Below are positions 1 through 15,123 of a stretch of DNA of 20,997 nt, one piece after another; position 1 is the first letter of the stretch, and each line of letters opens with the position of its first letter. The notes under the pieces were generated by a model, which saw nothing but the letters and a program-made list of their open reading frames with translations, searched no databases and was not told the origin of the DNA. The stretch is from a virus (Duplodnaviria; Heunggongvirae; Uroviricota; Caudoviricetes), in the IMG/VR virus record IMGVR_UViG_2534681759_000007; one strand, given 5' to 3'. Position numbers and translations under genes: made by a program.

Positions 1-1164
1 TTACGCCTTCTTTATATCCTCCATAATTCCAGAGTGGGACATATTTGGGACATTATCACCAAAAATGTCGTCTATTTTCCTCGCATGCTCTGTCAAATGA
101 TTAGGCGCAAGGTGAGCATACCTACGAACCATTTCTATGGACTCCCATCCGCCCATTTCCTGAAGCACTGATAATGGGACGCCTGACTGAATCAGCCAGC
201 TTGCCCAGGTGTGTCTGAGGTCATGGAAACGGAAATCTTCAATTCCTGCACGACGACAAGCTGATAGCCATGATGTCTTGCTGTCGATGCGCATCTTCCT
301 GACCGCAGGCGTTGATGTTCCATCTGCTCGCTTAGCCGCCTTGGTATGTACAAACACCCATTTGTGATGCTTGCCTATTTGATCACGCAACACTTTACAG
401 GCGGTATCGTTCAGCGCCACACCAATGGCGCGGTTTGATTTGCTCTCTTCTGGATTCACCCAGGCAACTCGTCGCTGCATGTCGATTTGTTGCCATTCCA
501 GATTTATGATGTTCGACTTTCTCAGACCAGTTGCCAGCGCAAACTTGACGACAGATTTCAGTGGTTCGGGGCACTCATCAATAAGGCGTTTTGCTTCCTC
601 CTTTTCCAGCCATCTGACTCGCTTGTTTCTGACCGCTGGTATCTTGATGACAGGCGCTTTTTCCAGCCACTTCCAGTCGCGTTCTGCAGCACGGAGAATG
701 GCCTTTATCATGGCAAGATGCTTTGCCTTTGTCTGAGTTGATACTGGCTTTGGTTCATAAACAGGCGGTTCTTTACCTTTCCTGATGGCGGCCTGAACTT
801 TCTGTTTCCATATTTCTTTCGTCTTTCTGTTATGCATTCTGCTTACAGCAGAGTAAATCTTTGCCTCCGAGATATCTTTAAGCCTTATACCCTCAAAATG
901 TTCAAGCCAGAACTCAATCCGGCTTTTATCTGAATCGAGAGATTTTTTATCAGCTTTTTCCTCAAGCCATCTTAGGCAGGCCTCTTCAAAAGTGACATCA
1001 GGTAAATCCCCTAGCTTTTCTACTCGCCAGAGTTCTGCTTTTCGCTTGTCGTGCAACTCCTGAGCTTGCCGCTTGTCCTTTGTGCCAAGAGATTCCTTAA
1101 TTCGTTTCCCGCCCGGGAGCGAATACGAGGCATACCATATTTCATTTCTGCGGAAGAGTGACAT
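1..1164 (-). CDS. int: Phage integrase, tyrosine recombinase family
   Basis: 387-aa ORF with ATG at 1164 and stop at 1-3. C-terminal region [15 protein letters not shown]...VRRYAHL fits the R..H-x-x-R..Y catalytic signature of tyrosine recombinases. First gene at the left edge, as expected at a prophage end. Confidence 0.9.
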
Positions 1165-1391
1165 TTTCTTTCCTCTGTTATGCCATCACCCGCGCTCACC
1201 TGGACAGTATGCAGCGGAGACTGAAGCGCCGCAATGCAGGCTTGCCGTGTTGTGAGGTAAGGAGATTTTGGCTTGGTTGGATCTTTACGTGTTGCCTGTA
1301 GGCGGCCTGTTCGTATCCAGTTGGTGGCGGTTGGTCTGGATATCTTAAGAAACTGACAGGCCTCATCGAGTGTGAGGCTGTATGATTCCAT
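1020..1391 (-). CDS. Excisionase-like DNA-binding protein (AlpA/Xis-type HTH); 3' extent uncertain
   Basis: ATG at 1391 preceded by a GAGGT Shine-Dalgarno-like sequence; N-terminus [31 protein letters not shown] resembles excisionase-type HTH proteins. The open frame overlaps the start of int by about 145 nt, which is unusually long. Confidence 0.55.
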
Positions 1392-1641
1392 GGTTACCTC
1401 TGCTTTTTGAACGCATGTCACGTAACTTCTTAATGTGTTCTGCCGTTTCGATCTCTTCTGCTATCCGATCTGCATCAGCTTTATTCACAGGTTCAAAGTC
1501 ATGATTAAAGCGGAACATGCTGGCGATACATGTTCTGCCTTTTCGGATGTAGTGAACTTTGTTGTGGGTAGAACGCAGGATTTTGCAGGGAGTGCCGTGG
1601 TGGTCGACGTACCAGGTGTTAGGAAAAATGATTCTGAACAT
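1363..1641 (-). CDS. Hypothetical small phage protein
   Basis: 92-aa ORF, ATG at 1641 with GAGGTG 8 nt upstream; co-oriented with int/xis; no family recognised. Confidence 0.45.
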   Translation of the reverse strand: MFRIIFPNTWYVDHHGTPCKILRSTHNKVHYIRKGRTCIASMFRFNHDFEPVNKADADRIAEEIETAEHIKKLRDMRSKSRGNHGIIQPHTR

Positions 1642-1688
1642 TTTTACACCTCAGTTGGACGATGTTGAAATTTGCTGCTTTGAGGCCA

Positions 1689-1907
1689 TCACAGTCCCCA
1701 TTGTTTGTTCTTAAGTTCGATCTCCTCCTGGCAACTTGCACAAGTCCGACAACCCTGAACAGCCAGGCGTCTTCGCTCATCTATCGGATCGCCACACTCA
1801 CAACAATGAGTTGCGGATACAGTCTGGTAGTTCAGACGACGCATTTTTATTGCTGTATTGCGCTGTAATTCTTCGATTTCTGATGCTGAATCAATGATGT
1901 CTGCCAT
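1689..1907 (-). CDS. TraR/DksA-family C4 zinc-finger protein
   Basis: 72-aa ORF with CCECGDPIDERRRLAVQGCRTCASC, i.e. two C-x2-C pairs typical of phage-encoded TraR/DksA-like zinc fingers. Confidence 0.75.
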   Translation of the reverse strand: MADIIDSASEIEELQRNTAIKMRRLNYQTVSATHCCECGDPIDERRRLAVQGCRTCASCQEEIELKNKQWGL

Positions 1908-2005
1908 CTTCCATTAATCCCTGAATTGTTGGTTAATACGCTTGAGGATGAATGCGAACAATAAAAAAGGAGCCTGTAGCTCCCTGATGATTTTGCTTTT
2001 CATGT

Positions 2006-2320
2006 TCACCGTTCCTTAAAGACGCCGTTTAACATGCCGATCGCCAGGCTTAAATGAGTCGGTGTGAATCCCATCAGCGTTACCGTTTCGCGGTGCTTCT
2101 TTAGTACGCTACGGCAAATGTCATCGACGTTTTTATCCGGAAACTGCTGTCTGGCTTTTTTGATTTCAGAATTAGCCTGACGGGCAATGCTGCGAAGGGC
2201 GTTTTCCTGCTGAGGTGTCATTGAACAAGTCCCATGTCGGCAAGCATAAGCACACAGAATATGAAGCCCGCTGCCAGAAAAATGCATTCCGTGGTTGTCA
2301 TGCAGCCTCCCGACGGGCAA
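2006..2320 (-). CDS. Hypothetical phage protein (start uncertain)
   Basis: 104-codon open frame beginning with TTG at 2320 (AAGGA upstream); in-frame ATGs at 2287 and 2221 are alternative starts. Co-directional with neighbours, no family recognised. Confidence 0.4.
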   Translation of the reverse strand: MPVGRLHDNHGMHFSGSGLHILCAYACRHGTCSMTPQQENALRSIARQANSEIKKARQQFPDKNVDDICRSVLKKHRETVTLMGFTPTHLSLAIGMLNGVFKER

Positions 2321-2855
2321 GAATCCTTGAGCCGAACGCCATCAACTCTCCACGATCAACAGTCGTAAAGTGGCAGTGTGTACGGGGGTATGGGTGCCAG
2401 ATAATGAGCATCGAGCCTTTATTATTTCCACTGACGGGTTTCTCAGTGAGTGGGTTAATAAATGCCAGTCGTCCTGCCGTGATGAATCTGACCTCACTGG
2501 CGGTTTGTATCGCTTCATGAAACCATCCGACAGATGTGTCAGCAGGCAATAACATTACACATCCCACACTACTGAATTTGTTTTCAGTGGCTGCCTTTTT
2601 CACAAAAGGGGAAATATTGCTGTATGGTGGATTCAACCAGACATAACCAGAGGCATATCCCATTGCTTCAGGCCATGAAGTGGTTAATGTGTTCTGCTCC
2701 TGTGAGATAAAAAGCCGACATAGTCGGTTTTTTTCGCTGGCGGCAGCATCAAGTTGAAAAACGAACTCTGCATTAAGCGCAGCAAAAATCTCTGGTGGTG
2801 TGCGCCAGCTGTCGCGATGTTCGGCAGGAGTATTGCTTCCGGTGAAATCAGTCAT
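2298..2855 (-). CDS. Phage DNA N6-adenine methyltransferase (Dam-like)
   Basis: 185-aa ORF containing the NPPY motif (YVWLNPPYSN) typical of amino-methyltransferase motif IV; ATG at 2855. Confidence 0.75.
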   Translation of the reverse strand: MTDFTGSNTPAEHRDSWRTPPEIFAALNAEFVFQLDAAASEKNRLCRLFISQEQNTLTTSWPEAMGYASGYVWLNPPYSNISPFVKKAATENKFSSVGCVMLLPADTSVGWFHEAIQTASEVRFITAGRLAFINPLTEKPVSGNNKGSMLIIWHPYPRTHCHFTTVDRGELMAFGSRILARREAA

Positions 2856-3009
2856 ACAGCCCCCGTTTATTATTTATCTCCTCAGCCAGCCGCTGTGCTT
2901 TCAGGGGATTTCGGATAACAGAAAGGCCGGGAAATACCCAGCCTCGCTTTGTAACGGAGTAGACGAAAGTGATCGTGCCTACCCGGATATTATCGTGAGG
3001 ATGCTTCAT
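2848..3009 (-). CDS. Small hypothetical protein (53 aa) coupled between exo and the methyltransferase
   Basis: My own translation of the minus strand: [53 protein letters not shown]. Its ATG overlaps the exo stop and its TGA overlaps the methyltransferase ATG (ATGACTGA arrangement). Too short to appear in the supplied ORF track. Confidence 0.3.
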
Positions 3010-3686
3010 CGCCATTGCTCCCCAAATGCAAAACCAATTTCAGCCAGTGCCTCGTCCATTTTTTCGATGAACTCCGGCACCATCTCGTCAAAACTCGCCA
3101 TGTACTTTTCATCCCGCTCAACCACGACATAATGCAGGCCTTCACGCTTCATACGCGGGTCATAGTTGGCAAAGTACCAGGCATCTTTTCGCGTCACCCA
3201 CATGCTGTACTGCACCTGGGCCATGTAAGCCGACTTTATGGCCTCGAAACCACCGAGCCGGAACTTCATGAAATCCCGGGAGGTAAACGGGCATTTCAGC
3301 TCAAGGCCATTGCCGTCACTGCATAAACCATCGGGAGAGCAGGCGGTGCGCATACTTTCGTCGCGATAGATGATCGGGGATTCAATAACATTTACGCCGG
3401 AAGTGAACTCAAACAGGGTTCTGGCGTCGTTCTCGTACTGTTTTCCCCAGGCCAGCGCTTTAGCGTTAACTTCCGGAGCCACACCGGTGCAAACCTCAGC
3501 CAGCAGGGTGTGGAAGTAGGACATTTTCATGTCAGGCCACTTCTTTCCTGATCGGGGCTTTGCTATCACGTTGTGAACTTCTGAAGCGGTGATGACGCCG
3601 AGCCGTAATTTGTGCCATGCATCATCCCCCTGTTCGACAGCTCTCACGTCGATCCCGGTACGCTGCAGGATAATGTCCGGTGTCAT
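3006..3686 (-). CDS. exo: Lambda exonuclease (Red alpha)
   Basis: 226-aa ORF that I recognise as near-identical to phage lambda Exo ([40 protein letters not shown]...); overlaps bet stop as in lambda. Confidence 0.95.
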
Positions 3687-4468
3687 GCTGCCACCTTCTG
3701 CTCAGTGGCTTTCTGTTTCAGGAATCCAAGAGCTTTCACTGCTTCGGCCTGTGTCAGTTCTGACGATGCGCGAATGTCGCGGCGAAATATCTGGGAACAG
3801 AGCGGCAATAAGTCGTCATCCCATGTTTTATCCAGGGCAATCAGCAGAGTGTTAATCTCCTGCATGGTTTCATCGTTAACCGGAGTGATGTCGCGTTCCG
3901 GCTGACGTTCTGCAGTGTATGCGGTATTTTCGACAATGCGCTCGGCTTCATCCTTGTCATAGATACCAGCAAATCCGAAGGCGAGACGGGCACACTGAAT
4001 CATGGCTTTATGCCGTAACATCCGTTTGGGATGCGACTGCCACGGCCCCGTGATTTCTCTGCCTTCGCGGGTTTTGAATGGTTCGCGGCGGCATTCATCC
4101 ATCCACTCGGTAACGCAGATCGGATGATTGCGGTCTTTGCGGTAAATCCGGCATGTGCAGGATTCGTTGTCCTGTTCAAAGTCCATGCCGTCAAACTGCT
4201 GGTTTTCGTTGATGATGCGGGACCAGCCATCAACGCCCACCACCGGAACGATGCCGTTCTGCTTATCGGGGAAGGCGTAAATTTCTTTCGTCCACGGATT
4301 AAGGCCGTACTGGTTGGCGACGATCAACAATGCGATGAACTGCGCATCGCTGGCATCACCTTTAAATGCCGTCTGGCGAAGAGTGGTGATCAGTTCCTGT
4401 GGGTCGACAGAATCCATGCCGACACGTTCAGCCAGCTTCCCAGCCAGCGTTGCGAGTGCAGTACTCAT
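3683..4468 (-). CDS. bet: Lambda Bet (Red beta single-strand annealing protein)
   Basis: 261-aa ORF recognised as near-identical to lambda Bet ([66 protein letters not shown]...). Confidence 0.95.
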
Positions 4469-4473
4469 TCGTT

Positions 4474-4770
4474 TTATACCTCTGAATCAATATCAACCTG
4501 GTGGTGAGCAATGGTTTCAACCATGTACTGGATGTGTTCTGCCATGCGCTCCTGAAACTCAACATCGTCATCAAACGCACGGGTAATGGCTTTTTTGCTG
4601 GCCCCGTGGCGTTGCAAATGATCGATGCATAGCGATTCAAACAGGTGCTGGGGCAGGCCTTTTTCCATGTCGTCTGCCAGTTCTGCCTCTTTCTCTTCAC
4701 GGGCGATCTGCTGGTAGTGACGCGCCCAGCTCTGAGCCTCAAGACGATCCTGAATGTAATAAGCGTTCAT
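4474..4770 (-). CDS. gam: Lambda Gam, short (98-aa) form, RecBCD inhibitor
   Basis: 98-aa ORF recognised as near-identical to lambda GamS ([21 protein letters not shown]...VDIDSEV). The upstream in-frame extension that gives GamL in lambda is not conserved here. Confidence 0.95.
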
Positions 4771-4845
4771 GGCTGAACTCCTGAAAATGGCTGTGAAAAA
4801 ATCGCCCGCGGAATGCCAGGCTGATTCGGAAAACAGGAAAGGGGA

Positions 4846-4911
4846 TTAGTGATTCAGACCGTTGCCGCGTCCGTCGAGAAAAACTTCCACGAGCAAGTCA
4901 CGGGTATAAGT
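4846..4911 (-). pseudogene. kil: 3' remnant of kil homologue, separated from its 5' part by the IS100 insertion
   Basis: Joining 6866-7095 to 4846-4911 across one copy of the TAAGT duplication restores a continuous frame ending ...IERTYTRDLLVEVFLDGRGNGLNH-stop. The stop (cac taa) sits at the position I remember for the lambda kil stop relative to gam, about 75 nt upstream of the gam ATG. Confidence 0.55.
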
Positions 4912-4918
4912 TGTCAAT

Positions 4919-6865
<1,947 letters not shown>

Positions 6866-7095
6866 TAAGTGCGCTCAATGCCGCGATGCAGATAAAGTCG
6901 TCCGCGTAAATTAGCTGATGCAGTCCAGGTACCATCTTTGCGTTTGACCAGCATTCCTGGCATGACCGCACCGCGATTAACGGTCTGCGTTCCGTAATGT
7001 TGATGAACCATAAAAACTCCTGCCCGTAAGCTGGGCTGCTGAACATATAAAGACTTCTGCGCGTATTCAGGCGGTGGATGGCCGCCGGTTGTCAT
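6866..7095 (-). pseudogene. kil: 5' part of kil homologue interrupted by IS100 (true start uncertain, possibly an internal Met)
   Basis: The open frame from 7095 runs into the IS100 right end at 6865, where the translation switches to IS-derived sequence. Internal Met codons at about 6963 and 6954 would give a reconstituted product of about 50 aa, similar in size to lambda Kil. Confidence 0.55.
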
Positions 7096-7264
7096 AACTA
7101 AGCCGCCTCGTTGAAGCGACTAAGGTATGAAATGTTGAGTTGATTTCAGCTGGTCACACCGACGTTCACGCGTCCGTTTCATCCCTCGCACTCCCCGAAG
7201 CCTGCTGAAATTCAAGCTGCGGATCTAAGCGGTCATCGCAACGGTGAATCAGGTAGTTGCCGTA

Positions 7265-7360
7265 TCGTTGTGTTGTTGCGATGAACTTATTTAAAACTAT
7301 AGTTGTTTTATCGTCAACAACAAAAGTTGTTTTATTGGTTGTTTTAGATATAACTGGTTG
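7265..7360. promoter_or_regulatory. Putative OL/pL operator-promoter region (GTTGTT/AACAAC dyads)
   Basis: Clustered dyad-symmetric sites, e.g. AACAACAAAAGTTGTT (7316-7331) and TTGTTTTATCGTCAACAA (7303-7320), sharing half-sites with the cI-cro intergenic region. Position between the rex-slot gene and the leftward early operon matches lambda OL. Confidence 0.5.
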
Positions 7361-7488
7361 TATTTAGGATGGATTTATTTTGTGACTTGCATCGCACAGC
7401 GATAACTGAAGCGAGGTCGTGGTGGTTTTTTGAACGGTTTGTGTGATGAGGGGAGGCAAAAGAAAACCCGGCACGACGGCCGGGGAAA

Positions 7489-8352
7489 TCATTTCGCATC
7501 TACAATAAATAACCTGTTTATCTGGCCTTTTTTAACAGTAGCCTTTGCGGTTATAGTGAATACTGCAGATGGATCACCTTTGGTTGATATATATGCACTA
7601 AGAGCTCTAATATACGGGTTATTCTTCTTTCCTGCAGCTGGATCGCTAATTTCAGCAGTGATTCTCTTTTTTGAGTCATCACCATCTAAAATTATTTTAG
7701 CTGTCATATTTTGTGCATCAAATTCTGTAAGAAAAGCACGATACTCACGAAGACCGAGAACTTCATCATCATCAAGCCTATCAATTTCAGCTTTATCTCT
7801 CTCGTTAACTTTTAGAAGGCAGCCGTCAACATTTGTTGCAACACTTATCTGATCGCAAGTATTACCAATAGGTGATACTGCCTGCCTTACAGAGGGGCGA
7901 AGCTCTACAGCCATTCGGTCAATCAAAGAGATCAACTTATCAATGGTTCCAGCATCCTTGTTTCCTAGTGCCTCTATGGCCTTTTCAAGTGACTGCTGCA
8001 AAGCTTTCATTTCATCTTTCTTGTTAGAATTTCTCGCAAAAATATATTGTAGTATTGCGCCAAGTATAGTTGCGGCGATCCCCGAGAACAACTGGTTCTG
8101 AGTGGCGAAGTTAAGAACTGCTTCAAGAGTAAAGCAGTTAGCTTTTGCTTCGCGTGCGTAAACCTTAACTTCCTGATAATTAATGTATTTACTATATTTT
8201 TGTGTAACAGAGAAAGAAGCTGCTGTTGAGAGAACTTTAGAAAAACCCTTTAGGGATTCTCCTAGGCAGTTCAAATCTATTTCATGATTTAAAGCATCTT
8301 TTCCGTCATACCTAAGAGAGATTTTTATATCCTGTAAAGCGTCACAATCCAT
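7489..8352 (-). CDS. Hypothetical protein in the rexAB-equivalent slot downstream of cI; candidate superinfection-exclusion/abortive-infection protein
   Basis: 287-aa ORF, ATG at 8352, 66 nt after the cI stop and co-oriented with it; visibly AT-rich relative to flanking phage genes; one central hydrophobic segment ([18 protein letters not shown]); no family recognised. Confidence 0.6.
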
Positions 8353-8418
8353 AAATCGCTCTCGTCTAATTCTAATTAAATTTACTATCCCCTAAACGAC
8401 TCATCAGCACAGTACTGA

Positions 8419-9108
8419 TTATCCATGTTTCCTGTACGTCTGGGGCATGCTCCCAATAACCTTACCGAAGATGAACACCCGGTTCATCTCGTCTTTCTCG
8501 ATCGGGTCCCACGGTGAGTAGCTCTTGTTATCAGAGATAACCAGCAGCTTATCCTTCATCATTTGCAGGCGCTTTACATGGGCTGTGTCGTCGTACAGAA
8601 ACGCATAGATACCATCACCGTCGAAAGATTTAACCGTGATATCAACGAACAGCAGATCACCTGGTTCGATCGTTCCTGACATGCTGTCACCACGCACGTT
8701 AATGATGCGGATATTTTCCGCCTTCCTACCATCGAACATGTGACGAGCATCGTCAAACGAGTACTCAACCGAGCGTAGAACTTCTACAAACTCACGGTTG
8801 ATGACTCCCGGCCCAGCACTGACTTCTATATCAAGAACGTCAATCTTGAAGTATTTGGAATGGCTGACAGTTGATTGTATTGGTTGCACTGTACTGTCTG
8901 ACATATTTCCAACGCCAGAAGATAACCATTCTGCGCGCACACCCAAAGCGTTCGCGATCTCCACGATTTTAGTTGTTTGATTAGCTTTCCCTGTTTCGAT
9001 TTTCTGAATAGCAGCCTGGCTAACCCCGACCAAATCCCCAAGCGCCTTTTGTGTAAGGCCTCGCGCTAATCTGGCTTCTTTAAGTCTTTCTGAGAGTGTT
9101 GTTTTCAT
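8419..9108 (-). CDS. cI: CI-like prophage repressor (N-terminal HTH plus C-terminal S24 LexA-like peptidase domain)
   Basis: Start taken at MKTTLSERLKEARLARGLTQKALGDLVGVSQAAIQKIE (ATG 9108), an XRE-type HTH. C-terminal GDSMSGTIEPGD and HVKRL supply the Ser/Lys dyad of autocleaving repressors. Divergent from cro across an operator-containing spacer. Confidence 0.85.
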   Translation of the reverse strand: MKTTLSERLKEARLARGLTQKALGDLVGVSQAAIQKIETGKANQTTKIVEIANALGVRAEWLSSGVGNMSDSTVQPIQSTVSHSKYFKIDVLDIEVSAGPGVINREFVEVLRSVEYSFDDARHMFDGRKAENIRIINVRGDSMSGTIEPGDLLFVDITVKSFDGDGIYAFLYDDTAHVKRLQMMKDKLLVISDNKSYSPWDPIEKDEMNRVFIFGKVIGSMPQTYRKHG

Positions 9109-9114
9109 AGTCCA

Positions 9115-9180
9115 AATGTACAACCAAGGTTTTATTCCATCAAACGAAAATGGTTGTTGACTAAAAACAACCATAGTTTT
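9115..9180. promoter_or_regulatory. Putative OR operator / pRM-pR region
   Basis: Perfect inverted repeat TGGTTGTT-N7-AACAACCA at 9151-9173 plus additional GGTTGT half-sites in the 104-bp cI-cro spacer. Confidence 0.55.
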
Positions 9181-9212
9181 AATCTTGATTCAAATTAACC
9201 ACGGAGGTTGTT

Positions 9213-9443
9213 ATGAACCCAGCTATCAAAACAGCGATCAATATCGTTGGTTCACAAAAGAAACTGGGCGCTGCTTGCGAAGTTTCACAGCAGGCCGTCT
9301 ATAAGTGGCTTCACAACAAAGCAAAGGTATCCCCTGAACATGTCGGCAGCATTGTTACGGCTACTGGTGGAGTAGTGAAGGCATACCAGATTCGCCCGGA
9401 TCTTCCGAAGTTGTTTCCACACACCGAAAAGAACGCAGCTTAA
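9213..9443 (+). CDS. cro: Cro-like repressor (YdaS-type HTH)
   Basis: 76-aa ORF with GGAGG Shine-Dalgarno sequence, divergent from cI; motif KKLGAACEVSQQAVYKWL is a Cro/YdaS-type HTH. Confidence 0.8.
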   Translation: MNPAIKTAINIVGSQKKLGAACEVSQQAVYKWLHNKAKVSPEHVGSIVTATGGVVKAYQIRPDLPKLFPHTEKNAA

Positions 9444-9512
9444 ATTTCCATTTCACGCTCTTTAACAATAAGCAATCAACTTAACAGTCAATTCAAACTA
9501 AAGGAGTCAATT

Positions 9513-10052
9513 ATGCAACCACTTACATACCAACAGACTAGCGGATTTAGCCCGACTGCGGTGATAAATCGTTCTCAAACAAAACAGGTGCCAGACCACG
9601 AAAAAATCCGTGATGCCGTCCGCGCCTGGTCGGCTGTAGATAATCAGGATGTCGTTGCCGCACTCATTGTGAATGAGTATCGGGAGCAGGGCGACGGCAC
9701 CATCGATTTCCCTGATGATGTCAGCCGTGCACGCCAGAAGCTGTTCCGCTTCCTCGATAACAAATTCGATTCTGAAAAATACCGAAATAACGTGCGTGAA
9801 CTGACCCCGGCAATTCTGGCGGTACTACCGCTGGAATATCGCGGTTACCTGGTTGAGCAGGATAGCTTCATGACTCGGCTGGCTGAAATGGAAAAGGAAC
9901 TCAGTGAGGCAAAACAGGCTGTCATTCTCAACGCACCACGCCACCAGAAACTGAAGGAAATTAGTGAAGGTATTGTGTCGATGTTTCGTGTGGACCCGGA
10001 TCTGGCTGGTCCATTGATGGCGATGGTTACCACCATGTTGGGGGCAATATGA
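9513..10052 (+). CDS. YdaT-family protein in the cII position
   Basis: 179-aa ORF with AAGGAG Shine-Dalgarno sequence. The segment RELTPAILAVLPLEYRGYL resembles the conserved core I remember from Rac-prophage YdaT proteins. It occupies the cII slot between cro and O. Confidence 0.55.
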   Translation: MQPLTYQQTSGFSPTAVINRSQTKQVPDHEKIRDAVRAWSAVDNQDVVAALIVNEYREQGDGTIDFPDDVSRARQKLFRFLDNKFDSEKYRNNVRELTPAILAVLPLEYRGYLVEQDSFMTRLAEMEKELSEAKQAVILNAPRHQKLKEISEGIVSMFRVDPDLAGPLMAMVTTMLGAI

Positions 10053-10138
10053 CAGGCTCAGAAATGGCGAAAGCCGGTCTGCGGGAACAGAGCCGACTTT
10101 CAGGCGCAAATCGTAACGCACTCATTGCGGGAGGAATT

Positions 10139-11068
10139 ATGGCAAACACTGCTGAGATATTCAATTTTCCAGTGCCGGATGTGGCACAAAAGGAGCCGCG
10201 CGTGGCAGATCTCGATGATGGTTATACGCGCATTGCAAATGAGTTGCTGGAAGCTGTGATGCTGGCCGGATTAACACAGCACCAGCTTCTGGTCTTCCTG
10301 GCTGTCATGCGCAAAACATATGGCTTTAATAAAAAACTGGATTGGGTGAGCAACGAGCAACTTTCCGAATTGACCGGGATATTGCCGCACAAGTGTTCTG
10401 CTGCAAAAAGCGTTCTGGTAAAGCGTGGGATTCTTATTCAGAGCGGGCGGAATACCGGCATTAATAATGTGGTCAGTGAATGGTCAACATTACCCGAATC
10501 AGGTAAGAAAAATAAAGTTTACCTGAAAGAGGTAAATTTACCTGAATCAGGTAAAAAAAGTTTACCCAAATCAGGTAAAGACGTTTACCCGAATCAGGTA
10601 AACACAAAAGACAAACTAACAAAAGACAATATAAAACCTTATTCGTCCGAGAATTCTGGCGAATCCTCTGACCAGCCAGAAAACGACCTTCCTGTGGTGA
10701 AACCGGATGCTGCGATTCAGAGCGGCAGCAAGTGGGGGACAGCAGAAGACCTGACCGCCGCAGAGTGGATGTTTGACATGGTGAAGACCATCGCGCCATC
10801 AGCCAGAAAACCGAATTTTGCAGGGTGGGCTAACGATATCCGCCTGATGCGTGAACGTGACGGACGTAACCACCGCGACATGTGCGTGCTGTTCCGCTGG
10901 GCATGCCAGGACAACTTCTGGTCCGGTAACGTGCTAAGTCCGGCCAAACTCCGCGACAAGTGGACCCAGCTCGAAATCAACCGTAACAAGCAACAGGCAG
11001 GCGTGACAGCCAGCAAACCAAAACTCGACCTGACAAACACAGACTGGATTTACGGGGTTGATCTATGA
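10139..11068 (+). CDS. O: Replication initiator O (lambda O family)
   Basis: Start chosen at MANTAEIFNFPV (ATG 10139, GGGAGG upstream), which aligns with the lambda O N-terminus MTNTAKILNF...VADLDDGY. An upstream in-frame ATG at 10049 overlaps the previous stop and is an alternative start. Contains iterons inside the coding sequence as in lambda O. Confidence 0.85.
   Translation: MANTAEIFNFPVPDVAQKEPRVADLDDGYTRIANELLEAVMLAGLTQHQLLVFLAVMRKTYGFNKKLDWVSNEQLSELTGILPHKCSAAKSVLVKRGILIQSGRNTGINNVVSEWSTLPESGKKNKVYLKEVNLPESGKKSLPKSGKDVYPNQVNTKDKLTKDNIKPYSSENSGESSDQPENDLPVVKPDAAIQSGSKWGTAEDLTAAEWMFDMVKTIAPSARKPNFAGWANDIRLMRERDGRNHRDMCVLFRWACQDNFWSGNVLSPAKLRDKWTQLEINRNKQQAGVTASKPKLDLTNTDWIYGVDL
10490..10602. 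repeat. Replication origin iterons (5 copies, one degenerate, about 23-bp spacing) inside the O gene
   Basis: Copies of TTTACC[C/T][G/A]AATCAGGTAAA at about 10490, 10518 (degenerate), 10538, 10560 and 10583, each internally palindromic (TACCTGA/TCAGGTA), followed by an A-rich stretch to about 10640. This is the lambda-type ori layout. Confidence 0.8.
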
Positions 11069-11787
11069 AAAACATCGCCGCACAGATGATTAACTTTGAC
11101 CGTGAGCAGATGCGTCGGATCGCCAACAACATGCCGGAACAGTACGACGAAAAGCCGCAGGTACAGCAGGTAGCGCAGATTATCAATGGTGTGTTCAGCC
11201 AGTTACTGGCAACTTTCCCGGCGAGCCTGGCTAACCGGGACCAGAACGAACTGAACGAAATCCGCCGCCAGTGGGTGCTGGCTTTCCGGGAAAACGGGAT
11301 CGCCACAATGGAACAGGTTAACGCAGGAATGCGCGTAGCCCGTCGGCAGAATCGACCATTTCTGCCATCACCCGGGCAGTTTGTTGCATGGTGCCGGGAA
11401 GAAGCATCCGTTACCGCCGGGCTGCCAAACGTCAGCGAGCTGGTTGATATGGTTTACGAGTATTGCCGGAAGCGTGGCCTGTATCCGGACGCAGAGTCTT
11501 ATCCATGGAAATCAAACGCGCACTACTGGTTGGTTACCAACCTGTACCAGAATATGCGGGCCAATGCGTTGACTGACTCGGAATTACGGCGCAAGGCTGC
11601 CGATGAACTTGCCCATATGACTGCGAGAATTAACCGTGGTGAAGCGATTCCCGAGCCAGTTAAACAGCTTCCGGTTATTGGTGGTAAGCCGCTATCCCGT
11701 ATACAAGGATTGGCAAAGTTGGCTGAGATTCGCGAGAAGCACGGACTGAGAAGACGTAAACAATTAACGGGAGTGAAGCTAACCTGA
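11065..11787 (+). CDS. P: Replication protein P (DnaB helicase loader, lambda P family)
   Basis: 240-aa ORF recognised as highly similar to lambda P (MKNIAAQM.NFDREQMRRIANNMPEQYDEKPQVQQVAQIINGVFSQLLATF...); the last ~20 residues differ from my recollection of lambda P. Start overlaps the O stop (ATGA). Confidence 0.92.
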   Translation: MKNIAAQMINFDREQMRRIANNMPEQYDEKPQVQQVAQIINGVFSQLLATFPASLANRDQNELNEIRRQWVLAFRENGIATMEQVNAGMRVARRQNRPFLPSPGQFVAWCREEASVTAGLPNVSELVDMVYEYCRKRGLYPDAESYPWKSNAHYWLVTNLYQNMRANALTDSELRRKAADELAHMTARINRGEAIPEPVKQLPVIGGKPLSRIQGLAKLAEIREKHGLRRRKQLTGVKLT

Positions 11788-12132: not shown

Positions 12133-13326
12133 TTATTCAATTAACGGTACTTGTTTGTTGCAGAATACTAATATTGCATCTTGAGTAAGTTTTTTATGCA
12201 TATGCTTTAGCGGCTCAATGTTAGTCTCGTAACCGAAAGTAGCGAAAAGAGTTGGTTCTATAATGAAATTTTCTTCATAAGCTTTTAGATCAAATGCTCT
12301 CTTTGCAATTAATCTAACTGCTTTCTTTCTAATGCGTGAATTATATCTATTCTCTATGCTAAGTTTAGCCATGTTTTCATCGATGTTGTTTTTTTGTTTT
12401 TTTAGTATAATTTGAATGTGATCATCATCAATTTGGCCATCTCTATATATATAATCAATGTCATAATTAAAATCAAAAAGCTGAGTGTCATTTACACCTT
12501 CAAGAAAAGGATTTGAAAATGGGCTCATGATCGGATCGAGTGATTTTTTATAAGTACTATTGCATTTAGTGCAGCTAGGAATTAAGTTAAATAAACTAAA
12601 GGAGATCAACGGATATTTGTACTTAGGTATGAAATGATCAAATGCTGGCCTGTAGCTAGTACCTGTATGGTCTTCTACTTGTTCAATTTCTTCACTGTTG
12701 CAATATGGGCATATGCTAATGTCTAAAAAACTGTTCAATTGATACGCTGTTTCTCTATCAATAAGTGAGTATTTAAATATTTCAGAAATATTTTTAACCC
12801 ATGATGGAAATAACTTAATGGTATTTTCCTTTAAAGGACCACCATTCTTGATACTTATAAGATTAAGAATCTTATCTCTTAAACTAGATAATTTTTGTGG
12901 TGAGAAATGTGTATTTAATATATCCTCAAGTATTAGGCTTTGTGTAGTTTGAGAGAAAGATGTGATTATTTTGATGGCATGTGCTAGTTCATTATAAACT
13001 ATTTTTTTGTTTTCTTTTGTTTTTAAAGGTAATTGTAGGTTTGTTAATGGTTGTAAATTTAAGTGCCTTAAAAAATAATCAGGAGAATAGTACTCACACA
13101 CAATTGGGTGTTTGTTGTATATTTTGATGATTATATTTTTTAATCGTTTGGGTTTTGAAAAAACTAATTTTCTGATAGTTTTTTTGTTGATTGTATTTAG
13201 AAACTCTACTTCATCGGGAGTAATGTTCAGTAACTTCCTCTGCTTCACGCGTTTATTAACTTTGCTTACTATTTTAGAAAAGGATATTTTTACATCAACA
13301 TTGAAGTCTTTGTTTATTTTTATCAT
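12133..13326 (-). CDS. HNH-family nuclease (PtuB-like), 397 aa, second gene of the AT-rich two-gene island
   Basis: HNH/His-Me finger signature at residues ~206-256 (nt ~12559-12711): CPYC...EDH...FDHFIPK...NLIPSCTKCN. Protein is Lys/Asn/Ile-rich and the DNA is strongly AT-rich; start is 9 nt downstream of the ATPase stop. Confidence 0.8.
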   Translation of the reverse strand: MIKINKDFNVDVKISFSKIVSKVNKRVKQRKLLNITPDEVEFLNTINKKTIRKLVFSKPKRLKNIIIKIYNKHPIVCEYYSPDYFLRHLNLQPLTNLQLPLKTKENKKIVYNELAHAIKIITSFSQTTQSLILEDILNTHFSPQKLSSLRDKILNLISIKNGGPLKENTIKLFPSWVKNISEIFKYSLIDRETAYQLNSFLDISICPYCNSEEIEQVEDHTGTSYRPAFDHFIPKYKYPLISFSLFNLIPSCTKCNSTYKKSLDPIMSPFSNPFLEGVNDTQLFDFNYDIDYIYRDGQIDDDHIQIILKKQKNNIDENMAKLSIENRYNSRIRKKAVRLIAKRAFDLKAYEENFIIEPTLFATFGYETNIEPLKHMHKKLTQDAILVFCNKQVPLIE

Positions 13327-13335
13327 TTTTTTTAC

Positions 13336-15123
13336 TCATTTCTCAAAAGAATCTGTTTTATCATTGTTTTTGTTTAACTTCAGATCAATAAGATTTATGA
13401 GAAGTTTATTTTTAATTTGTGATAGTATGGTTTTTTGATGTTTATTTAAATTACCGTCATCTGAGTTTTTTATTATTGAGTTTAGATAATTATGTGCGTG
13501 CTGTCCTATTGTAGCATCAATAAAAAAACCATTTATATATAATTCTGATATGGTTGCTCCGAAACCAAACTCTACTTTCTTAGTATAGGTTCCTTGATTA
13601 TGATCTCTTTCAAGATATATTATATCTGATGGCAAAAAATCACTTGCGAGTATAGGGGAGTGAGTTGTAAATACTAATTGAATATTTTTACTTTGTTTAT
13701 ATCTTAATGTTAAATCTATAATTTCTGAAAAAATAACTCGTTGCCATTCAGGGTGTAGATATAAATCACACTCATCTAATAATATTATAATATTTTTGCT
13801 GTTGCTATGTTCTATAGAATCATAAAGTTGATTGAAAAGGTTTAATTTTGCAAACTCTCCTGAACTAAGTGAATCCCAACCATACTTAAATCGCGATGAT
13901 ACGCCATTTGGTAACCTATCAACTAATCTTATTAACTCCATAATCTGCTTTGGTTCTTCAACTGTGAAAGATAAACTATCAACTGGGTCTCTTGCTGTGT
14001 TTTCTAATATATCAGCTATATTACCTATAATGTCGGAGATATGTTCAGATAACATTTCTATTTTTGACTGAAATTTAACATTAACGTTAAATTCATCTAA
14101 AGTCTCTAATATAGTTTTTGCTGGATCTTTTTCTTCAAGATACGCGCGACACAAGCAAAATAAATAAACAGTCTCACATATGTCTTTAGGGATTTTTGAT
14201 GTCTTGAGTAAATGCCATGTTATTGCAGGCAAAAGCATCAAGTAAATTATTTTGTGATATGAAAAGGTTGCGAGGAAATTTAATGATCTTTCTTTGTTAA
14301 AAATAATGCTAATAATAAAATCTTCATCGTAATCTATCCCATGATTGAGTATATCCACAAGTGAAATACCTAAAGAATCTAAATCACGTTCAATATATCT
14401 AGGGAGTTTATTGTTTTTAATTCTATCATTCAACGTATCAAAAAAGTATTCAATAGCTCCAAAAAGTCCTTTGTCACCAATATCATTGTTTTTTATAATA
14501 GAATTTATTTTATATACTGGTGAGTTTTCTATTTCAAATTGAAATTTAGTATTAAGTCTTGATAAATTGTCTTTAGCCCATGAACTGTGGTCTGAAAATG
14601 AAATTAATTGCTTGAGTAATTTCTTATTGCGTGTTTTACTGCCTTGCAAAAAATATGACAGTGATAAATCTTTAGAAATCGAATCGTTTTTTTTCTTTTT
14701 TTGTCCAACTAACATACTTTTGAGGTCGATTGTGTTATTTATCTTTATTAGATTGATTTTGTTTCTTCTAAAAAAATGTTCATTATTATCAATTAGTTCC
14801 GTTTGCATTTTGGATAATATTACAGGAGGTTTGCAATTGCTTGTGATAATTATAAGTTTATCATTTTCATTCCAGATGCTATAACCGCTACCTTCAAAAT
14901 CGTAAATAAAGCTACTAATGAAATCTAAAATTGATGACTTTCCAACACCATTTTTCCCTAAAATTAATGTACAGGGAATATTGCTATAATAGTCACGACT
15001 TAAATCTTTCTTAGCAATTGTAAGGACGTTACCTTTATGGCTAAAGGTAAATTTACTTGAGGTGGGGAGGGACAGCTTATTTAAACCTTTATAATTGTGG
15101 ATATAAGTGTATATTAGTTCCAT
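13336..15123 (-). CDS. ABC/SMC-like ATPase (AAA_15/AAA_21-type, PtuA-like), 595 aa, first gene of the two-gene island
   Basis: Walker A GKNGVGKSS (nt ~14935-14961), signature-like LSSGE (13855-13869), Walker B IIILLDECD (~13765-13791) and H-loop FTTHSP (~13654-13671), with a ~350-aa helical insert between Walker A and the signature. Strongly AT-rich. Confidence 0.8.
   Translation of the reverse strand: MELIYTYIHNYKGLNKLSLPTSSKFTFSHKGNVLTIAKKDLSRDYYSNIPCTLILGKNGVGKSSILDFISSFIYDFEGSGYSIWNENDKLIIITSNCKPPVILSKMQTELIDNNEHFFRRNKINLIKINNTIDLKSMLVGQKKKKNDSISKDLSLSYFLQGSKTRNKKLLKQLISFSDHSSWAKDNLSRLNTKFQFEIENSPVYKINSIIKNNDIGDKGLFGAIEYFFDTLNDRIKNNKLPRYIERDLDSLGISLVDILNHGIDYDEDFIISIIFNKERSLNFLATFSYHKIIYLMLLPAITWHLLKTSKIPKDICETVYLFCLCRAYLEEKDPAKTILETLDEFNVNVKFQSKIEMLSEHISDIIGNIADILENTARDPVDSLSFTVEEPKQIMELIRLVDRLPNGVSSRFKYGWDSLSSGEFAKLNLFNQLYDSIEHSNSKNIIILLDECDLYLHPEWQRVIFSEIIDLTLRYKQSKNIQLVFTTHSPILASDFLPSDIIYLERDHNQGTYTKKVEFGFGATISELYINGFFIDATIGQHAHNYLNSIIKNSDDGNLNKHQKTILSQIKNKLLINLIDLKLNKNNDKTDSFEK

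Follow-up and report, generated by a model that had tools for sequence, protein, structure and literature searches.

Which replication origin does a prophage carry when the repeats inside its O gene are laid out as in phage lambda, while their sequence is not that of lambda? The question is raised by a stretch of 20,997 nucleotides (the window, i.e., all the DNA that was analysed), which is part of a lambdoid E. coli prophage at an intD/DLP12-like locus. This prophage is present in ETEC-2264, strain 90-9280 and TW10828. A first reading, made from the letters alone (the sequence-only reading), had proposed palindromic iterons and an A-rich stretch within O, an iteron sequence different from that of lambda and a lambda-like P, together forming a hybrid replication module. 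In lambda, the N-terminus of the O protein is described as binding ori and the C-terminus as binding P (Furth and Yates, 1978; Wickner and Zahn, 1986, both as cited in PMC6022878). As the same line of work is summarized, it is as a dimer that the N-terminus binds the iterons, and the two domains are connected by a flexible linker (including Tsurimoto and Matsubara, 1981; PMC6022878; PMC8022706). The comparisons below make it highly probable that the region from 10490 to 10645 is a lambda-type bidirectional replication origin embedded in O and part of a natural recombinant module. With equally high confidence, the whole can be explained by an origin-recognition half, consisting of the N-domain and the iterons, that would represent an Enterobacterales-wide specificity class other than that of lambda, joined to a P-recruiting half and a P that are lambda's. 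The features of the module are listed in Table 1.

Table 1. Features of the O/ori/P module, with positions in the window.
Feature	Position	Strand	Sequence	Remarks
Gene O, replication initiator, 309 aa	10139..11068	+		Pfam PF04492 Phage_rep_O, E 2e-34
Putative antisense promoter of the pO kind (accessory), which overlaps the O start; analogue of lambda oop	10136..10164	-	TTGAAT-17-CATAAT	upstream TG
O N-terminal (origin-recognition) domain coding region, non-lambda type	10139..10489	+
Iteron 1	10490..10506	+	TTACCCGAATCAGGTAA	extra copy without lambda counterpart; 30-bp insertion relative to lambda
Iteron 2	10519..10535	+	TTACCTGAAAGAGGTAA	centre degenerate; positional equivalent of lambda iteron 1
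Iteron 3	10538..10554	+	TTACCTGAATCAGGTAA	perfect palindrome; equivalent of lambda iteron 2
Iteron 4	10562..10578	+	TTACCCAAATCAGGTAA	equivalent of lambda iteron 3
Iteron 5	10585..10601	+	TTACCCGAATCAGGTAA	equivalent of lambda iteron 4
AT-rich region	10602..10645		two ACAAAAGACAA repeats	presumed unwinding element and mosaic junction
O linker and C-terminal (P-interacting) domain, lambda type	10646..11068	+		DNA identity to lambda 94-100%
Gene P, helicase loader, lambda type	11065..11787	+		PF06992 Phage_lambda_P, E 7e-62

The iterons are copies of the palindrome TTACCYGAATCAGGTAA, 17-19 bp in length, which occurs five times on the plus strand. A degenerate pattern of this palindrome, TTACCYRAAWSAGGTAA, was run with at most one mismatch over the 21-kb window and over 100 dinucleotide-preserving shuffles. 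It matched the five plus-strand sites and, read in reverse, the perfect palindrome at 10538, nothing elsewhere in the 21-kb window, and nothing in the 100 shuffles (0 matches). The five iterons are thus non-random, and all of them fall, together with the A-rich stretch, within the O reading frame, so that this part of the sequence-only reading is confirmed. Its count of four good copies and one degenerate copy stands as to the number of sites, but the core TACC[C/T]GAATCAGGTA is carried by three of the five, the iteron at 10562 having a G>A change in the core and that at 10519 a degenerate centre, GAAAGAGG. The uniform spacing of about 23 bp that had been proposed does not hold, as the start-to-start distances are 29, 19, 24 and 23 bp. 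The repeats had also been said to be translated as LPESGKK-like segments. This is correct for iterons 1, 3 and 4, which read LP(E/K)SGK, and incorrect for the copies at 10519 and 10585, which are read in the other frame and yield the peptides VYLKEVN and VYPNQVN.

The reading frames bear on the question whether the repeats are DNA sites at all. They could be a feature of the protein only, i.e., a flexible linker (LPESGKK) that has been duplicated between the two O domains and does not function at the level of the DNA, the origin being elsewhere. The region is indeed coding, a structural model predicts O residues 102-174 to be unstructured, and changes in copy number in multiples of 24 or 48 bp keep the frame. 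A linker alone does not account for an identical 17-mer that is read in two frames to give unrelated peptides, nor for the fact that every copy is a palindrome, in the register and with the spacing of the footprinted lambda iterons. Furthermore, the iterons conserve their third codon positions to a degree far beyond the background. Compared with Klebsiella phage GZ7, 65 of the 117 third codon positions in the N-domain are identical, against 15 of 16 inside iterons 3-5 (Fisher p=0.0025), and iterons 3-5 are identical at 49 of 51 positions, against 16 of 28 in the spacers (p=3e-5). Nine further loci were selected by an iteron pattern, which makes two iterons in each conserved by construction; this touches both the comparison with Xenorhabdus, Providencia and Pantoea, in which 35-49% of the N-domain third positions and 94-98% of iterons 3-5 are identical, and the number of core positions that do not vary, which is 15 out of 17 in a set of 51 AT-proximal iterons drawn from 17 genes. 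No such selection bias affects the loci of GZ7, E. coli and Salmonella. Over the relatives as a whole, third codon positions are 35-56% identical and the repeats nearly invariant. The iterons are conserved at the DNA level, and the comparisons clearly point to a constraint acting on the DNA itself. A linker without a role as DNA sites is therefore hardly credible as an explanation.

As DNA sites, the iterons have the arrangement of those of lambda (NC_001416). In lambda, 19-bp palindromes at 39034-39118 lie inside O at the boundary of the two domains, as they do in the window, and are followed by an A-rich region with the motif CACAAAAGACA, again as in the window. In the alignment, iterons 2-5 of the window are in exact register with lambda iterons 1-4, with a spacing of 19/24/23 compared to 20/24/23 bp in lambda. 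The sequence elements of a lambda-type module are present: at least four palindromes of about 19 bp at about 20/24/23, of which the last four are in the lambda register, an AT-rich candidate unwinding region to the right of the iterons, and a lambda-type O C-terminal domain with a P loader. The differences lie in the number of iterons, which is five in the window and four in lambda, and in their sequence, as lambda's ATCCCTCAAAACGAGGGA and the window's TTACCYGAATCAGGTAA are unrelated. The proposal that the layout is lambda-type and the iterons are not lambda's is hereby supported. The module falls outside the lambda ori specificity group, which is defined by ATCCCTCAAAACGAGGGA iterons and a lambda-like N-domain, its iterons differing at most positions; phages 21 and 434 have lambda-type iterons. 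A binding specificity distinct from that of lambda is suggested by these sequences.

The mosaic structure of O itself is evident from its alignment to lambda O, which extends over the full length with very uneven identity. Membership of the Phage_rep_O family is unequivocal (PF04492, 118 bits against a cutoff of 28.7). The N-domain (residues 1-117) is 49% identical to lambda O, 61% to P22 gp18 and 40% to phi80 gp15, while it is 84-98% identical to the O proteins of phages 4C10 and GZ7 and of E. coli and Salmonella prophages with the same iteron. The last 135 amino acids of O are 99% identical to lambda O, and P is 93% identical to lambda P. These values bear out both the lambda-like nature of P and the hybrid nature of the module; identity of the iterons and the N-domain to those of lambda, on which the proposal of a hybrid would have foundered, was looked for and is not the case. 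At the DNA level, identity to lambda is 25-60% to the left of 10600, locally up to about 70% in the N-domain, then 70-80% in the AT-rich region (10600-10640) and 94-100% from 10640 to about 11500, with two segments at 90-92%, and it falls again from about 11640 in the 3′ end of P.

The AT-rich region, directly to the right of the iterons, consists of 73% A+T and 57% A, with the A's biased to one strand. Its ACAAAAGACAA repeats form a direct repeat, and the motif is common to lambda, P22, SEN34 and GZ7. In every comparison made, the change of similarity partner falls within the CACAAAAGACA motif or directly behind it, between 10600 and 10640. Judging from these alignments, the junction of the two O halves is this shared motif of the AT-rich region. 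The 3′ end of P was observed to differ as well: its last ~50 codons (11640-11787) diverge from both lambda and phage 4C10, and P counts 240 amino acids compared to 233 in lambda. This divergence is a second mosaic junction, just before a low-GC island.

O probably starts at the ATG at 10139, although the mechanically predicted open reading frame begins at 10049. The assignment is based on a GGAGG located 5 nt upstream, on the alignment with Met1 of lambda O and the annotated starts in GZ7 and SEN34, and on the RefSeq annotation of 10139-11068 (WP_001387574.1). A protein of 339 amino acids starting at 10049 was rejected, as the extension spans the oop-like region, has no counterpart in lambda, GZ7 or SEN34 and disagrees with the RefSeq start at 10139. 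An antisense open reading frame at 10473-10799 is likewise regarded as mechanical and has no support. An AlphaFold2 model of O residues 1-174, built on a 15-sequence alignment, is poor (pLDDT 52.5), and it is from this model that residues 102-174 are predicted to be unstructured. Sequence and profile searches of the PDB gave no solved relative of O. Because of the poor N-terminal model and the lack of a solved relative, the mode of recognition has no structural support here.

Another likeness to lambda is found at the O start, where both have a pO/oop-like antisense promoter. In the window, this candidate promoter is of the sigma-70-like type and overlaps the O start codon, as in lambda, and the ATTATG/…TCAA arrangement is also found in lambda, SEN34 and Ec284. 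In the 90 bases from 10049 to 10139, a hairpin at 10062-10098 is predicted to be stable (fold z = -3.1). SEN34 and one E. coli relative have this hairpin with compensating changes, and it is not followed by a clean U-tract. The antisense unit as a whole (10055-10164, minus strand) would seem to be an analogue of oop. No RNA family reached the gathering threshold when the entire window was scanned with Rfam.

If the origin-recognition half is not lambda's, the question arises where else it occurs. The same iteron, together with an N-domain that is 71-98% identical, was found in GZ7, in several E. coli and Salmonella prophage O genes and in nine Enterobacterales genomes; the former loci were found by protein similarity and the nine genomes by a two-iteron pattern. 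The co-occurrence of iteron and N-domain is thus observed throughout this set. Across the unit, the number of iterons varies from 4 to 9. Xenorhabdus, Providencia and Pantoea have four, with 19/24/23 spacing and without a counterpart of iteron 1 of the window. Most Enterobacteriaceae have five, and expanded arrays of 7, 8 or 9 copies occur in Kluyvera sichuanensis, Salmonella and E. coli O genes, with seven or eight in some E. coli and Salmonella and nine in Kluyvera. The extra iterons arise by tandem duplication of 24 or 48 bp, in frame, at the end of the array that is remote from the AT-rich region, and each such step adds 8 or 16 residues to the O linker.

What stands behind the unit is far less constant. 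In the window and in 4C10, it is followed by a lambda-type C-terminus and lambda P, in Salmonella by an unrelated C-terminus and a 231-aa protein of the PF06992 P family, and in GZ7 and E. coli by an unrelated C-terminus and a loader of the DnaC/IstB type, while other genera have still other partners. The lambda-type C-terminus, in its turn, is combined with N-domains and iterons of at least three kinds, i.e., those of lambda, SEN34 and the window. From these comparisons, the N-domain and the iteron appear to travel together, whereas the C-terminus and the partner vary freely. The two closest examples illustrate both situations. Escherichia phages 4C10, 4A7, Perceval, 1W, 3W and PhiR34_1 carry the O/ori/P of the window at about 96% DNA identity, and 4C10, the one relative for which this is listed, has five iterons in a layout identical to that of the window. 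Phage GZ7 has the same five-iteron layout and an N-domain that is 84% identical, but combines this unit with an unrelated C-terminus and a DnaC-type loader. No iterons are annotated in the records of 4C10 and GZ7, nor do they occur among the feature names listed under the other matches, and a full-text literature search with the iteron string returned unrelated human primer matches only.

Origins of the same build were also read from P22, Providencia phage PSTNGR2lys, phi80, SEN34 and GZ7. In all of these, ACAAAAGACAA-type repeats follow the iterons. Lambda, P22 and PSTNGR2lys have four iterons each at 20/24/23 spacing, the sequences of which are all different. The closest characterised iteron is that of the P22 gene 18 origin, TTTACC-AGATC-GGTAAA, to be compared with TTTACC-GAAAC-GGTAAA in PSTNGR2lys. 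The outer half-sites TTTACC/GGTAAA and the ACAAAAGACAAT repeats are the same in P22 and in the window. This raises the possibility that the origin is real but does not form a class of its own, in which case O proteins acting on TTTACC...GGTAAA would recognise each other's sites and the module would functionally be a P22-type origin with lambda P. Besides the shared half-sites, the N-domain, which is nearer to P22 gp18 than to lambda O, fits this possibility. However, the half-sites are separated by 7 bp in the window and by 5 bp in P22 and PSTNGR2lys, a difference that displaces every half-site by 1 bp with respect to the dyad. Moreover, the central GAATC does not vary within the iteron class of the window, and 61% identity in the N-domain leaves ample room for altered recognition. 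P22 further differs in having four iterons, an O C-terminus unrelated to that of the window and a DnaB-type helicase, gp12, as partner instead of P. Neither the N5 spacer nor the DnaB-type partner of the P22 gene 18 specificity group is found in the window, which has N7 and lambda P. A P22-type specificity is therefore considered unlikely, and a class separate from both P22 and lambda is preferred.

A parallel for the extra copy is provided by the Stx phages 933W and P27, which have six lambda-type iterons, of which only the four AT-proximal ones are bound strongly, yet the additional ones matter in vivo (PMC7466680). There too, iterons have been added away from the AT-rich side, as iteron 1 of the window. 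By analogy with these distal Stx iterons, iteron 1 may be weakly bound yet relevant. The iterons and N-domain of 933W and P27 are themselves lambda-type; if the linker encoded by the iterons is counted in, their N-terminal part shows about 45% identity to that of the window. A classical example of a specificity other than that of lambda is phage 82, for which lambda-82 hybrid O proteins have been described (Furth and Yates, 1978, as cited in PMC6022878).

The prophage around the module contains several other elements. Within the leftward early region, gam and kil are separated by an IS100 element (IS21 family, istA and istB; 4978-6779, minus strand). The prophage of ETEC-2264 is identical apart from the position of this IS, which in that strain sits in the integrase gene. 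The S24-family repressor has as its neighbour, in the position of lambda rexAB, a protein of 287 aa with the domains DUF7946 and DUF7947 (7489-8352, minus strand), which has a weak PADLOC match only (PDC-S42, E 1.5e-4). In the cro/cII positions (9213-10052), a YdaS-family protein of 76 aa and a YdaT-family protein of 179 aa are found, which are not lambda Cro and CII and the placement of which resembles Rac-type immunity regions. The place of lambda ren is occupied by the low-GC island (12133-15123, minus strand, 25-32% GC), which encodes a 595-aa AAA_15/AAA_21 ATPase and a 397-aa protein. This pair matches the PADLOC candidate PDC-M62 A/B (E 4e-44 and 1.5e-33) and, more weakly, Septu PtuA/PtuB, and is on these grounds probably a two-gene anti-phage system. 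The nin-Q-lysis arm (rusA, quuD, porin) is presumably of the DLP12/82 kind. Phage 82 has an O/ori type specificity of its own, yet recombines with lambda inside O.

Given these surroundings, the origin in this prophage might be an inactive relic of a decaying element that is kept through recent insertion only. The IS100 between gam and kil, the intD/DLP12-like locus as named in the annotation, the K-12 counterpart of which is defective, and the low-GC foreign cassette in place of ren would all fit such decay, and because of the IS100 in the leftward early region the copy in the window may never fire. O and P are nevertheless intact, full-length open reading frames, all five iterons match those of sequenced phage genomes, the IS is located in the leftward operon, outside the pR-O-P unit, and the exact O protein occurs on about 300 contigs. 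A relic is improbable on this evidence, if somewhat less so than a P22-type specificity.

If the origin works as its homology to lambda leads one to expect, O would be made from the rightward early transcript, by analogy with lambda, and would bind its own iterons to form an O-some, as homologous O proteins do. This complex would bend and stress the DNA, upon which the adjacent A-rich stretch at 10602-10645 would unwind. The lambda-type C-terminal domain of O would then recruit the P-DnaB complex, from which host chaperones would release DnaB. Iteron binding, its specificity, unwinding and origin activity are thus all expected by analogy.

Modular O/ori specificity has been textbook knowledge since 1978, and the module is an ordinary, very common mosaic of this textbook system. 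The novelty implied by the sequence-only reading was therefore overstated: the module occurs widely and had been annotated as O and P before. With a threshold of 95% identity, the N-domain and iteron segment is present in 2297 of 5426 complete E. coli genomes (42%), in up to three places per genome. The whole O/P unit occurs at about 96% in at least 16 phage records, where it is annotated as O and P, and the 90% cluster of the O protein has 7825 members. The combination of O with lambda-type, DnaC-type or DnaB-type partners in E. coli prophages has been documented before (PMC2669165; PMC12315714).

The value of the locus for discovery is small. It shows, in a clean natural case, the two-domain logic of lambda O that has long been known: the recognition half and the loader-recruiting half have been swapped at the origin itself. 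Its practical value lies in annotation, as the correct start of O can be marked, along with iterons and AT-rich region, in thousands of prophages of E. coli, Salmonella and other Enterobacterales. A more speculative suggestion, open to considerable doubt, is that the N-domain/iteron unit constitutes an experimentally uncharacterised specificity group, possibly that of phage 82, which would be the commonest in E. coli prophages. Because the class is common (some genomes carrying two or three copies), it is a reasonable object for the study of cross-talk between the origins of co-resident prophages. If the suggestion is true, the initiator of one prophage could fire, or be titrated by, the origins of other prophages and of incoming phages with the same unit, resulting in helper effects at the level of replication or in decoy-type exclusion, as reported for ectopic ori-lambda copies, and the variation in iteron number from 4 to 9 would tune this cross-talk.
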